31,573 nucleotides of DNA from Candidatus Gottesmanbacteria bacterium (GTDB lineage Bacteria; Patescibacteriota; Microgenomatia; UBA10105; UBA927): NCBI GenBank assembly GCA_016218185.1, contig JACREP010000046.1, positions 1-31,573 on the forward strand, written 5' to 3'. The notes beneath the pieces were generated by a model. It saw only the letters and a list, made by a program, of their open reading frames with translations. It was not told where the DNA came from and made no database searches. The position numbers were made by a program, and so were the translations under genes. Within the stretch, counting starts at the first letter, position 1. Each line of letters starts with the position of its first letter. This document shows positions 10,099 to 28,389 of this stretch, one piece after another.

Positions 10099-11019
10099 AT
10101 GGCAGATTTAACGGTGACGTATTGCGGCGTGAAGTTTCCGAATCCCTTGGTGCTTCCGTCCGGTATCGCGCAGGAAATTCCGGCGGATCATGAGCGGGCA
10201 ATTAAAGCCGGAGCCGGGGGTATTACTACAAAATCATTAACCATTGAGTCGCGTGAGGGCAATCCACTCCCGCGGGTCGCGAAATATGAACAGGGGTTCC
10301 TCAATTCCGTGGGGCTCCGCGGGCCGGGAATAGAGAAAGGAAAGGTTTTGATTGAAGAATTTTTGAAAACCTCGCCGGTTCCCGTCATCGTGAGCGTTTT
10401 TGCAACAAGAGTAAAAGATTTTGAACGGTTTGCCGGGGAGCTTTGTCCGCTCAACCCGCCGCTTTTTGAGCTAAATCTTAGTTGCCCAAACGTTGATGAT
10501 ATGGGGAAGCCGTTGGGGTTGGGATGTGAGTCTTCCGCTGCCGCTGTCTCCGCGGTTAAAAAGATAGCCGGCAAGATACCAGTACTTGCGAAGCTTACTC
10601 CAAATGTCCCCAATATCGCGGAGGTTGCCCGCGCGTGCGAAGATGCGGGAGCCGACGGAATTGCCGCCATCAACACTGTCGGGCCCGGGATGCTCATAGA
10701 TATCACGCGAAGAAAGCCAATTTTGGGCGCAAAGCGCGGCGGAGTATCCGGACCAGCCATCAAACCCGTTGCTGTGCGCTGCGTGTATGATATTTATGAG
10801 GCAGTCAAGATACCGATTATCGGTATGGGCGGGGTGACCACATGGCAAGACGCCGTGGAAATGATGATGGCAGGAGCGACCCTCGTGGGGGTTGGCTCTG
10901 CTACGTACCTAAAAGGCTATGCGGTCTATGAGGAGATAAAGAAGGGTTTAGAGAAATACATGGACAAAGAAGGGCTAAAAAGCCTTAAACAACTTGTCGG
11001 CGTTGCACACGAACTATGA
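10099..11019 (+). CDS. pyrD: Dihydroorotate dehydrogenase, family 1 catalytic subunit
   Basis: GGITTKS, NSVGLRGPG, ELNLSCPN (catalytic Cys), KLTPN, INT, GGVSGPAIKP, IIGMGGV. Confidence 0.96.
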   Translation: MADLTVTYCGVKFPNPLVLPSGIAQEIPADHERAIKAGAGGITTKSLTIESREGNPLPRVAKYEQGFLNSVGLRGPGIEKGKVLIEEFLKTSPVPVIVSVFATRVKDFERFAGELCPLNPPLFELNLSCPNVDDMGKPLGLGCESSAAAVSAVKKIAGKIPVLAKLTPNVPNIAEVARACEDAGADGIAAINTVGPGMLIDITRRKPILGAKRGGVSGPAIKPVAVRCVYDIYEAVKIPIIGMGGVTTWQDAVEMMMAGATLVGVGSATYLKGYAVYEEIKKGLEKYMDKEGLKSLKQLVGVAHEL

Positions 11020-11609
11020 AATACAACATTGGTATTTTTGGATCGGCTGTGGAGGAGTCAAAAAAGATCATGGCAACAGCTCGACTGTTGGGAAAAATAT
11101 TGGGAAACCATGATCATTCAATCCGGCTTCTTTTTGGTGCGTGTCCAGGCGTGCCGTATGAAGTAGCCGCTGCGGCACAGGCAGCCAGTTCCGTCGAAAT
11201 CATAGGATTTTCTTCCGAAACATCGAGAGAAGCGCAGCTCAGCTATAGTCCGAAGGACAACCTGTCCATGTATACCAGTATTCGGTTCGTCCCGAAGGGT
11301 TTTGAATTTAGCGCCAATTCCGACGTCCGCAAAAAATACCGTAACGTGCTTTTAACCGCATCGGTTGATGCAGGCATCGTCGTTTCGGGACGATGGGGAA
11401 GCCTGAATGAGTTTACGGATCTGTATGATATGGGGAAAGTCATCGGCGTGTTGACCGGCACCGGCGGAGTTGCAGATGAACTTCCCTCCTTATCTAAAAA
11501 GATCCATAAACCCAGCAAGGCAGTAGTACTTTTTGACTCTTCACCGGAACAACTCGTAAAGCGCATTATTGAGGAACTAAAGCGTCGCACGTTGCCTAAG
11601 AGTTCGTAA
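11016..11609 (+). CDS. LOG/SLOG-family (TIGR00725-like) nucleotide-binding Rossmann-fold protein
   Basis: IGIFGSA start, GACPGVPYEVA, KYRNVLL..S.DAGIVVSGRWGSLNE (variant of PGGxGTxxE), GKVIGVLTGTGGVAD; ATGA overlap with pyrD stop. Confidence 0.75.
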   Translation: MKYNIGIFGSAVEESKKIMATARLLGKILGNHDHSIRLLFGACPGVPYEVAAAAQAASSVEIIGFSSETSREAQLSYSPKDNLSMYTSIRFVPKGFEFSANSDVRKKYRNVLLTASVDAGIVVSGRWGSLNEFTDLYDMGKVIGVLTGTGGVADELPSLSKKIHKPSKAVVLFDSSPEQLVKRIIEELKRRTLPKSS

Positions 11610-11620
11610 AGAGGTAAAAT
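11592..11620 (+). promoter_or_regulatory. Promoter upstream of hicB
   Basis: TTGCCT (11592-11597), 17 bp, TAAAAT (11615-11620); ATG follows 9 nt later. Confidence 0.6.
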
Positions 11621-11629
11621 GGGTTAGAT

Positions 11630-11905
11630 ATGCAAACGAACGTTCTTAACTATCGAATCATCCTCGAGCCAGATAAACGAACCGGCACAAATGAGGCCGG
11701 CTACGCTGCATATTGCCCGACGCTTGGATTGGCTGACGGAGGAGATACGATCGAAGAGGCAATTGCCAATATGAAAAAACTTATTGAATTTCACTTGGAG
11801 TGCTTAATAAAAGAAAAACAACCGTTGCCAGTAGATAGCGAAGAGGAAATTGTCGTAACGACAAAGGTGCACATACCAAAAGATCAAAACTTCTCGTTTG
11901 CATGA
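11630..11905 (+). CDS. hicB: HicB-family antitoxin, short form without DNA-binding domain
   Basis: YRIILEPD...GYAAYCPTLG...GDTIEEAIANMKKLIEFHLE, partial RNase H fold pattern; ATGA overlap with hicA. Confidence 0.85.
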   Translation: MQTNVLNYRIILEPDKRTGTNEAGYAAYCPTLGLADGGDTIEEAIANMKKLIEFHLECLIKEKQPLPVDSEEEIVVTTKVHIPKDQNFSFA

Positions 11906-12138: not shown

Positions 12139-12990
12139 ATGACGTTCTACCAAAAACTTAATGCGATTGTCCAAAAACAAAACTCGCTCGTGTGTGTGGG
12201 GTTGGATAGTGATATACAGAAAATCCCCAAGCATATACGCGTTGGAGAACACCCCCAAACAACCTTTAATAAGACGATTATCGACGCGACCCACGATCTG
12301 GTGTGTGCCTACAAGCCGAATGCGGCATTTTATGAAGCGCGCGGCAAAGCAGGGATTGAGGCGCTCAAAATGACCTGTGACTACCTGCGGGAGAAATATC
12401 CGGAAATAGTGCTTATTCTTGACGCGAAGAGGGCAGACATCGGAAGCACCAATGAAGGGTATGTGCAATTTGCTTTTGATTACCTGGGCGCTGACGCCAT
12501 CACCCTGCATCCTTACTTAGGGAAGGATGCGATACTTCCATTCCTTGAGCGGAAAGAGAAGGGGAGTTTTATTCTTTGCCGGACAAGTAACCCCGGCGCC
12601 GGCGAACTTCAAGACCTCACAGTAGTGAGGTCGCAGTCCTCCGAAGCGGGAGCGTTGGAGGGCAAGTCACTTTATCAAATAGTTGCCCAGAATGTTGTTA
12701 AAGACTGGAATTACAATGCGAACTGCGGTCTGGTGGTCGGCGCTACCTACCCTAGCGAACTTGAAATTGTACGACGTATTGTGGGTGATATGCCAATTCT
12801 TATTCCCGGCATCGGTGCGCAAGGCGGCGATGTGGAAAAGACGGTGAAAGCCGGTGTTGACAGTCAAGGCAAAAACGCTATTATCAACGCATCCCGTAGT
12901 ATCATTTTTGCCTCAAACGGCGAAGATTTTGCACAAATTGCGCGCAAAGAAGCGATGAAATTGCGAGATGAGATAAACAAATACCGTTAA
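12139..12990 (+). CDS. pyrF: Orotidine-5'-phosphate decarboxylase (subfamily 2) with an 11-aa insertion
   Basis: CVGLD, AYKPNAAFYE, LDAKRADIGST, RTSNPG, GLVVGAT, LIPGIGAQGG, NASRSI; AGGAG SD 6 nt upstream. Confidence 0.97.
   Translation: MTFYQKLNAIVQKQNSLVCVGLDSDIQKIPKHIRVGEHPQTTFNKTIIDATHDLVCAYKPNAAFYEARGKAGIEALKMTCDYLREKYPEIVLILDAKRADIGSTNEGYVQFAFDYLGADAITLHPYLGKDAILPFLERKEKGSFILCRTSNPGAGELQDLTVVRSQSSEAGALEGKSLYQIVAQNVVKDWNYNANCGLVVGATYPSELEIVRRIVGDMPILIPGIGAQGGDVEKTVKAGVDSQGKNAIINASRSIIFASNGEDFAQIARKEAMKLRDEINKYR
12625..12658 (-). repeat. Short element inserted in frame in pyrF, related to the purC insert
   Basis: Reverse complement of 12627-12658 = CCAACGCTCC-cgcttcg-GAGGAC-tgc-GACCTC, versus purC 28122-28154 CCAACGCTCC-tccgacgc-GAGGAC-gca-GACCTC. 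Confidence 0.65.
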
Positions 12991-26857: not shown

Positions 26858-27362
26858 ACCCAAAATCGCGGTTCTTTTGGGGAGCGATTCCGATCTTCCG
26901 GTCGCACGGGATGCGCTTGCGACGCTCGATGAGTTTCACGTACCCTTTGATGTGCGGATCTTTTCTGCCCATCGAAGTCCTGACGATACCGTAACCTATG
27001 TGAAGAAGGCCACGAGCAGCGGAGTGTTACTTTTTATTGCGGCAGCAGGAGGCGCTGCGCACCTGGCAGGGGTTATTGCTGCGCACACCACTCTTCCGGT
27101 TATCGGTATTCCCATACAGACCAAATCGCTGAGAGGCGTTGATTCGCTGTATTCTACCGTGCAGATGCCGCCCGGAGTGCCGGTGGCCACCGTCGGCATC
27201 AATGCCGCCAAAAACGCAGGGCTTTTGGCCATACAAATACTTGCAGTCGGCGATGCGCGGCTTACGAAGCAGTTAAAAACGTATAAGACACAGCTTGCAA
27301 AAGGCGTACGAAAGAAAAACACAGCGCTTGAGCGCTTGGGCTGGAAAAAATATGATATCTAA
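26850..27362 (+). CDS. purE: N5-CAIR mutase (class I PurE)
   Basis: [46 protein letters not shown]. Confidence 0.97.
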
Positions 27363-28389
27363 GGCAACGATTATTCGATCCCTGCCGTATGTGCTCAAAA
27401 CGATTGATATTCCCGGTTTGGGAAAAAAATATCAGGGCAAAGTGCGCGATTTTTATATCAAAAACGGTAAACGGATTCTTATCACGACGGACCGTCAGTC
27501 AGCCTTTGACGTTATCCTTGGACATATTCCGTTTAAGGGCGCAGTACTTAACCTGCTTTCTGCATTTTGGTTTGAGGAAACAAAAGATATCGTCCCAAAC
27601 CATATGATTTCTGTACCCGATCCCAACGTCATGATTACCCGGGATTGTACGCCCATACCCGTGGAGATGATTGTCCGCGGATATATTTCGGGGGTTACCA
27701 AAACATCGATTTGGTACTCGTACGAGCGTGGTGAACAGCTTATTTACGGTATACCGTTTCCGGATGGGCTCAAAAAAAACCAAAAGTTACCAAATCCTGT
27801 TATAACGCCAACAACACACCCTTTGGCCGGAAGTACTGTGCATGACGAGCGCTTGACCCGGGAGCAAATTATCAAGCAAAAGATTGTTCCCAAAAAGCTC
27901 TATGAGCAAATGGAGCGCGCTGCCTTGGCGCTATTTGCCCGGGGGACGCGCATCTGTGAGCGTCGGGGACTTATTCTGGTGGATACAAAGTACGAGTTTG
28001 GCATGTATAAGGGAAAACTTACCCTTATTGACGAGATTCACACGCCGGATTCATCACGTTTTTGGACGAAGGAGAGCTATGATCGCATATTTCATACCGA
28101 TGAAAAAGGCGAAGCCCCGAACCAACGCTCCTCCGACGCGAGGACGCAGACCTCGGGAGGAGGGAAGTTTGGTTCTGGGGAGCCGGATAATTTCGATAAG
28201 GAATTCTTGCGTCTCTGGTATGCCCAGCGCGGGTACCGCGGCGAAGGATCGCCACCAAAAATGCCCACAGAGCTCGTCATTGCACTCGCAAGGCGCTATA
28301 TTGCCGTCTACGAAAAAATCACAGGCAGGAAGTTTCGAGCATTCTCGTATCCGATTAATCAACGAATTATTCAGGCACTCACCACATGA
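27352..28389 (+). CDS. purC: SAICAR synthetase (long type) with a ~24-aa insertion
   Basis: [65 protein letters not shown] 27352 preferred over 27295. Confidence 0.96.
28122..28154 (+). repeat. Short element within the in-frame insertion of purC, related to the pyrF insert
   Basis: CCAACGCTCCTCCGACGCGAGGACGCAGACCTC, flanked by CCCGA...TCGGG inverted ends (28116-28120 / 28153-28157). Confidence 0.65.

Follow-up and report, generated by a model that had tools for sequence, protein, structure and literature searches.

The window analysed here, a stretch of 31,573 nucleotides, is contig C8 of a 699-kb Gottesmanbacteria genome (G000; 127 contigs, 50% G+C). Positions 12139–12990 of its forward strand hold pyrF, an intact open reading frame (ORF) for an orotidine-5'-phosphate (OMP) decarboxylase of 283 amino acids. 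The protein was assigned to the OMP decarboxylases based on its match to the Pfam OMPdecase domain (PF00215; E-value 5e-29, 102 bits) and its TIM-barrel fold, and it contains the motifs DAKRAD and GIGAQGGD. Two small ORFs of 197 and 91 amino acids lie between pyrD and pyrF (11016–11905). A preliminary description of this DNA had proposed that pyrF carries a 33-nt in-frame insertion. Alignment with close homologs bore this out: a segment at 12625–12657 (forward strand) encoding the 11 residues VRSQSSEAGAL is absent from the 272-amino acid PyrF of G001, a genome of the same genus, which reads QDLVT-DGKPLYQ, and is missing from most of 19 relatives. If 12625–12657 is excised, the normal-looking sequence QDLTV-EGKSLYQ that had been predicted is restored, and the insert-free homologs P0005 and P0018 read alike.

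The insertion site is an indel hot spot, at which some relatives carry other short insertions or deletions. Searching 5.8 billion proteins identified a homologous insert at the same point in 10 other PyrF proteins (70–80% identity), all of them from metagenomic contigs, in which the inserted peptide follows the pattern xxSQSxEAxxx (e.g. SKSQSAEALAK). The nearest PyrF homologs (P0003, P0005 and P0006) are insert-free, and further homologs hold other inserts at this point, of a DSGNQxI type or a TSG...DGG type. The SQS-type insert is scattered over a PyrF tree from which the loop had been left out. Given the well-supported branches, its state must have changed at least five times, and the insert label is no more clustered than after shuffling, on a tree whose support is modest in places and which recombination could blur. 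Among 87 species genomes of the order, the pyrF-type arrangement occurs in this genome alone. Had the segment been an ancestral loop, as the preliminary description allowed, all close homologs should carry it, and G001 and most relatives do not. The pyrF segment is a lineage-variable in-frame insertion.

The position of the insert in the protein was examined in an AlphaFold model of PyrF built from 36 sequences (pLDDT 87, pTM 0.87), which has TM-scores of 0.81–0.91 to the Leishmania OMP decarboxylase 3qw3. In the model, residues 163–175 are without secondary structure, the pLDDT of residues 165–172 falls below 50, and the insert lies between two short strands, at the tip of a beta-hairpin. The structure 4mjz, which among solved homologs is nearest in sequence, has an insertion of its own at the same point. 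This mapping, which the preliminary description had called for, supports the prediction that the insert peptide adds a loop to PyrF.

At the DNA level, the insertion site folds into two hairpins. Hairpin 1 (12613–12632, forward strand) has the form GACCTCAC-agta-GTGAGGTC, and the perfect pairing described for it previously is present in the sequence. Its 5' arm (12613–12620) consists of the host Asp-Leu-Thr codons, its loop spans 12621–12624, and its 3' arm (12625–12632) is formed by the first 8 nt of the insert, the exact reverse complement of those codons, giving an 8-bp stem. In the DNA of five homologs, the first eight bases of the insert are likewise always the reverse complement of the host Asp-Leu-x codons; the pairs of host and antisense arms in PyrF genes are GACCTCAC/GTGAGGTC, GATCTCAC/GTGAGATC, GATTTGCT/AGCAAATC and GATCTGCT/AACAGATC. 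Because the first eight inserted bases mirror the host codons, the residues VRS, SKS and NRS that begin these inserts are the antisense of DLT and DLL. Across six PyrF genes, five of the eight pairs of hairpin 1 change on both sides, and 94% of the cells remain paired. The 8-nt arm is followed by a core, CGCAGTCC(T/G)CCGAAGC, then by nine variable bases and by GGAGG. In this genome, hairpin 2 has a nearly perfect 11-bp stem with a GGGA cap; the folded stem covers 12636–12663, and its final bases belong to the host Glu-Gly codons. Between PyrF genes the core is 95% identical, compared with 69% for the 90 nt upstream, and third codon positions are identical at 93% in the core and at 42% in the flanks. 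Folded together, the two hairpins reach -32.2 kcal/mol as RNA (z = -5.0), with z = -4.6 as DNA.

These properties bear on whether the segment could be an ancestral protein loop that was kept for the sake of the enzyme, its likeness to other DNA being due to chance. The hot spot for indels at this place is natural to the OMP decarboxylase family and would suit such an origin, which we nevertheless regard as extremely improbable: the nearest relatives do without the insert, the conservation is seen at the DNA level with synonymous sites included, the first residues are merely the antisense of Asp-Leu-x, and the peptide is modelled with low confidence.

A dispersed repeat probably accounts for the second hairpin. 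The repeat, which we call R2, is a 30-nt hairpin of the form CGCAG-TCCTCC-GAA-GC-loop-GC-GAA-GGAGG, in which the outer stem is followed by a GAA/GAA internal loop and a short inner stem that is capped. An exact-pattern scan (core plus GGAGG) of 185,579 species genomes returned 10 matches, compared with about 17 estimated by chance. Four of the 10 come from genomes of the CPR (Patescibacteria) and are nearly perfect hairpins of 30 nt, with the form CGCAG-TCCTCC-GAA-GC(C/T)-TT-(G/A)GC-G(A/T)A-GGAGG. Copies with this pattern are found at two non-coding loci of Doudnabacteria, one of them (L067:1449-1478) about 420 nt upstream of a 23S gene on the strand opposite to the rRNA; in the rpoC gene of a Parcubacteria genome, where the copy is in frame and read as SEAQSSEALAKED; and immediately before a purQ-like start codon in an uncultured bacterium (L072:6-35). 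In the last of these, the GGAGG of the 3' arm lies about 12 nt before the purQ-like ATG and could be a Shine-Dalgarno site masked by the R2 hairpin. The exact 30-mer has at most one or two copies per genome. A scan of metagenomes with the pattern added little, as the matches were mostly chance ones in high-GC contigs coding for AQSAEA.

We then used a covariance model of R2 that was built from 11 copies, with the G000 pyrF copy in the seed alignment, and a match threshold of E <= 0.1 per genome. The model matched 31 of 41 genomes, G000 among them, with more than 100 matches (up to 15 per genome) against about four expected, although the matches near E 0.01–0.1 may include chance ones because R2 is short, mostly invariant and has a single covarying pair. 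Copies thus occur above chance in unrelated loci and unrelated genomes. The stem exists in the variants CCTCC/GGAGG, CCCCC/GGGGG and CCGCC/GGCGG, and one of seven pairs covaries. About 20 of the 32 copies examined are located in open frames of at least 150 codons, in both polarities and several frames, where they are read as AEALAKEG, SFAKASAD or LRQGFGGQ. In-frame hosts include RpoC, DnaK, SecA, AlaRS, YchF, the CCA-adding enzyme (cca) and, in two genomes, PBP2. The coding copies are all stop-free, which fits with read-through translation; one non-coding copy has TAG where the coding ones have AAG. R2-like hairpins are dispersed in Gottesmanbacteria and other CPR lineages, both between genes and inside intact housekeeping genes. 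Rfam returned no RNA family at the pyrF and purC inserts or at other copies of R2 and of R1 (the purC repeat, below), the only families found being rRNA genes nearby. We found no paper on such repeats in CPR bacteria or containing the R2 core or its peptides, which is not proof of absence.

A second coding copy of R2 in G000 (C44:1155-1184, reverse strand) lies in a PBP2-type transpeptidase gene (C44:982-2811) and is read as PAEALAKAG. Among 25 relatives, the loop that holds it (FAP...GEPEISV) is hypervariable: R2 is flipped in G026 (LRQGFGGQ), and variants occur in G022 and G014. In the same-genus genome G001, the PBP2 loop has a palindrome, GATTCCGGGAATC, read as DSGNQ. This palindrome also recurs in the PyrF loop of relatives (L006, L164 and proteins P0017 to P0026) and may represent a third cassette family.

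The pyrF insert itself has the features by which R2 is recognised, namely the CGCAG lead, the CCNCC/GGNGG stem, the GAAGC...GCGAAG core and the fixed spacing. The copy in this genome (12632–12661, forward strand) is a variant form with a GGGA loop that scores 45 bits against the R2 model, the best score in the 41 genomes for a copy that was itself in the seed. It keeps 23–25 of the 30 R2 positions; its inner 9 nt are non-canonical and its stem is better paired. Since this copy was part of the seed, its membership in R2 rests mainly on the orthologous PyrF inserts, which agree with R2 copies outside pyrF at 27–29 of 30 positions (P0004 at 29 of 30 with the copies of Parcubacteria rpoC and Doudnabacteria). 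Based on these comparisons, the pyrF insert is probably an in-frame, read-through copy of the GC-rich hairpin repeat R2, about 30 nt long, that is preceded by an 8-nt antisense of the host Asp-Leu-Thr codons.

The strength of the twin hairpin suggests another reading, which is compatible with the origin from R2: the two stems may be a selected mRNA or single-strand DNA structure that serves pyrF expression through pausing, processing or stability, with its spread being secondary. The compensatory changes in five of eight pairs of hairpin 1, the conserved third codon positions of the core (93%, against 42% in the flanks), the strong fold (z of -5) and the one R2 copy that overlaps a Shine-Dalgarno site before purQ are all points in its favor. 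The closest relatives, however, dispense with the insert, as do 86 of the 87 species genomes of the order; on the PyrF tree it occurs in scattered positions, and unrelated palindromes fill the same loop in other lineages. A single RNA function is also hard to square with R2 as a whole, because its polarities and frames vary among unrelated genes. We therefore consider a selected structure unlikely as the main explanation.

Related organisms carry a wide variety of palindromic inserts in this PyrF loop, and this, too, invites a local explanation in which the palindrome was made on the spot by template switching during replication and no dispersed element was involved. The insert opens with eight bases that repeat, exactly and in inverted form, a sequence lying 4 nt upstream, further inserts found there, such as GATTCCGGGAATC, are palindromic as well, and the flank encoding GAGEFQDL is duplicated in some homologs. 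The remaining 25 nt of the insert, in contrast, are without a local template, and correspond to a 30-mer that is also present in other genes and other CPR classes. The 30-mer at unrelated loci refutes such an origin for the R2 part, leaving it possible for hairpin 1 only; for the insert as a whole, we judge it very improbable.

The preliminary description had joined the pyrF insert to a second insertion, in purC, some 15.5 kb away. The purC gene (27352–28389, forward strand) encodes a SAICAR synthetase of 345 amino acids (P0122; PF01259, E-value 1e-59) that is about 25 residues longer than the proteins of 12 relatives. In a protein search the insert peptide also matched contig C60, and this lead defined a second repeat, R1. 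In purC, R1 is in frame at 28114–28180 (forward strand) as a 67-nt three-stem hairpin that scores 92 bits (E-value 2.5e-18) with an R1 covariance model. Over the 59 nt of 28115–28173, purC shares 90% identity with intergenic DNA on C60, and C52, C55 and C12 match as well. R1 is recognised by having three stems, a loop with the conserved sequence ACGYAGA and the ends CCCCG/GGGG. Of its 23 pairs, 11 stay paired through two-sided changes among the five copies first identified. The covariance model identified 14 copies in G000, the purC copy included; the others are on contigs C60, C52, C51, C12, C55, C35, C117, C108, C58, C41, C19, C26 and C69. Nearly all are intergenic and on the same strand as the flanking genes, such as those in the rpsJ-rplC gap and ahead of rpsF. 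The C60 copy (C60:509-575) lies about 100 nt upstream of a 16S gene on the opposite strand, and in the C58 and C55 copies the terminal loop itself contains a smaller hairpin.

R1 is present in 23 of 30 other genomes of the order (18 of 24 in the same family and five of six in the sister family), with 1–14 copies each, and is almost absent from the remainder of the class. Its sites are mostly non-orthologous, lepA being the only recurrent flanking gene (four loci). A role of R1 as a conserved cis-regulatory leader was rejected because the flanking genes mostly differ between genomes. At the purC site, the three nearest PurC homologs have R1 in the same polarity, and a fourth homolog, P0150 (L129:2231-2297, reverse strand), has it in frame at the same site in the opposite polarity, with 78 bits on the minus strand.

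R1 and the pyrF insert are alike in being GC-rich hairpins with a CCTCC/GGAGG-type stem and G-A-rich internal loops, and R1 also resembles it in lying in frame in a gene of nucleotide synthesis and in occurring in either polarity at one site. It differs from R2 in being twice as long and in its three stems, ACGYAGA loop and CCCCG/GGGG ends. If the pyrF insert were a shortened, reversed copy of the R1 element in purC, the blocks shared by the two would be explained directly. The reverse complement of 12627–12658 and purC near 28121–28154 do share the three exact blocks that had been described (CCAACGCTCC, GAGGAC and GACCTC; 10, 6 and 6 nt), in the same order and with a spacing that differs by 1 nt. 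This match stands above background, as an equal score in a single comparison is reached by only 0.045% of 20,000 33-mers drawn at random from the genome, and against all 39 R1 copies the insert gives P = 0.001. Several R1 copies (C12, purC, C58 and C117) are among the top Smith-Waterman matches of the pyrF 33-mer in the genome, and a GAGG-N7-CCTC hairpin with a CGCAG loop core is common to both elements.

The models built for R1 do not recover the pyrF site, however. The R1 covariance model, run with filters off, gave no match there at E <= 10, and a profile HMM of the 39 copies gave 3.8 bits (E = 34, rank 29 in the genome), on the forward rather than the reverse strand; by both measures the pyrF insert falls outside R1. 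BLAST of the insert against the genome found nothing significant, the best matches being 12-mers with E of about 2. Canonical R2 and the homologous PyrF inserts have no notable likeness to R1 (P from 0.014 to 0.30; 0.07–0.3 for P0014, and 0.05–0.3 for canonical R2 with the P0014 insert), and because the insertion in those orthologs is evidently the same one, we take the evidence, which is mixed, to mean that the pyrF insert is not derived from R1. The matching blocks also fall in lineage-specific or copy-specific bases: two of the three are in lineage-peculiar parts of the pyrF insert, where GAGGTC follows from the lineage's GAC-CTC codon choice and GGAGCGTTGG is the variant loop, and half of the 10-mer is in the variable outer stem of the purC copy. 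A descent from the purC element is thus quite unlikely in our estimation. We infer that the resemblance reflects a similar construction (a CCTCC/GGAGG stem with internal loops rich in G and A) together with coincidence in lineage-specific bases. The first reading of the locus, as a small mobile or recombinogenic repeat family in coding DNA in either orientation, was only partly right, because two different repeat families are involved: a hairpin repeat does occur in coding DNA in both polarities, but pyrF and purC do not hold one and the same element.

Among known systems, the behavior of R2 recalls that of the Rickettsia palindromic elements (RPEs), which are hairpin-forming repeats that lie between genes and also in frame in intact housekeeping genes, where they add a surface peptide. 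RPEs are about 100–150 nt long, are confined to Rickettsia (RPE-1 to RPE-10) and are tolerated by their hosts; we know of no transposase linked to them. The comparison, already drawn in the preliminary description, holds for behavior only, and kinship in sequence is not expected. R2 is likewise found both between genes and in frame in intact genes; the ORFs that carry inserts are intact, and in the PyrF model the added peptide forms a low-confidence loop at the tip of a hairpin. The repeats described here differ in being 30 nt (R2) and 67 nt (R1) long and in belonging to CPR bacteria, and also in that one site can have the element in either polarity, one loop can take several palindromes and one arm comes from host codons.

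In size, the closer parallel is with REP and REPIN sequences and their RAYT (Y1 HUH) transposases. These are imperfect palindromes of 20–70 nt with many dispersed copies that are extragenic by definition (PMC3116915, PMC3337134). R1 and R2 are similar in size, imperfect palindromy and dispersal, the mostly intergenic location within operons holds for R1, and G000 has Y1 genes flanked by small hairpins. They differ in that R2 is often coding (about 20 of the 32 copies examined) and R1 is in frame in purC, so that neither is strictly extragenic, and in that the hairpins flanking the Y1 genes are unlike R1 or R2 and no REPIN doublets were seen. R1 and R2 may therefore be described, by analogy, as RPE-like in behavior and REP-like in size, but smaller, in another phylum, and with arms from host codons and flips at the same site.

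A cognate HUH transposase was searched for, as had been suggested. Five Y1 (HUH, IS200-like) transposase genes (PF01797) were identified in the 0.7-Mb genome, on contigs C35, C25, C38, C45 and C50. Those on C35, C25 and C38 have short flanking hairpins of their own (CGAGGTTGAACCTCAG on C35, for example), the gene on C50 has a shared flanking motif and looks truncated, and that on C45 has no obvious flanking hairpin. A link of the Y1 transposases to R1 or R2, as their cognate RAYTs, was rejected because the flanking hairpins are not shared with either repeat. One R1 copy is located 1.2 kb from the Y1 gene of C35, a proximity that proves nothing.

A mechanism can be sketched in which R2 would be gained, lost and flipped by a DNA-level process acting on hairpins. 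Candidates are two events of replication, template switching and palindrome correction, and an HUH-type enzyme acting on single strands. Template switching would explain the antisense arm, the flank duplications (P0096, P0011 and P0070) and the polarity flips, but not the R2 core, for which no local template exists. R2 itself would be selfish or neutral DNA that is tolerated where the enzyme does not care, as with RPEs. More speculatively, the small hairpin cassettes of CPR bacteria might, rather than being passive debris, come from an active system by which they are installed, corrected and flipped at favored sites that encode loops, with arms complementary to host codons, a proposal that we hold only tentatively and think doubtful. 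If true, it would describe a class of mobile DNA that coding sequence can accommodate and that is a major source of variation in the protein loops of reduced CPR genomes.

If hairpin repeats routinely enter and leave the genes of essential CPR enzymes, much of the unexplained variation in CPR protein length would be accounted for, and the repeats would mark recent genome dynamics in bacteria regarded as streamlined. It would also raise the question of what moves a 30-nt hairpin, in either polarity, repeatedly into the same loop. Population metagenomes would allow a direct test of both the arm that is antisense to host codons and the polarity flips at one site. The R1 and R2 models are of use in annotation, where they keep such inserts from being mistaken for functional protein motifs.

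Some PyrF genes (P0096 at L063:960-1169, P0011 and P0070) have tandem cassettes, in which R2 is accompanied by the TSG...DGG palindrome. Between the two cassettes, some 27 nt of the upstream flank (GAGEFQDL) are directly duplicated, and the second cassette has a weak R1 score of 14.5 bits.
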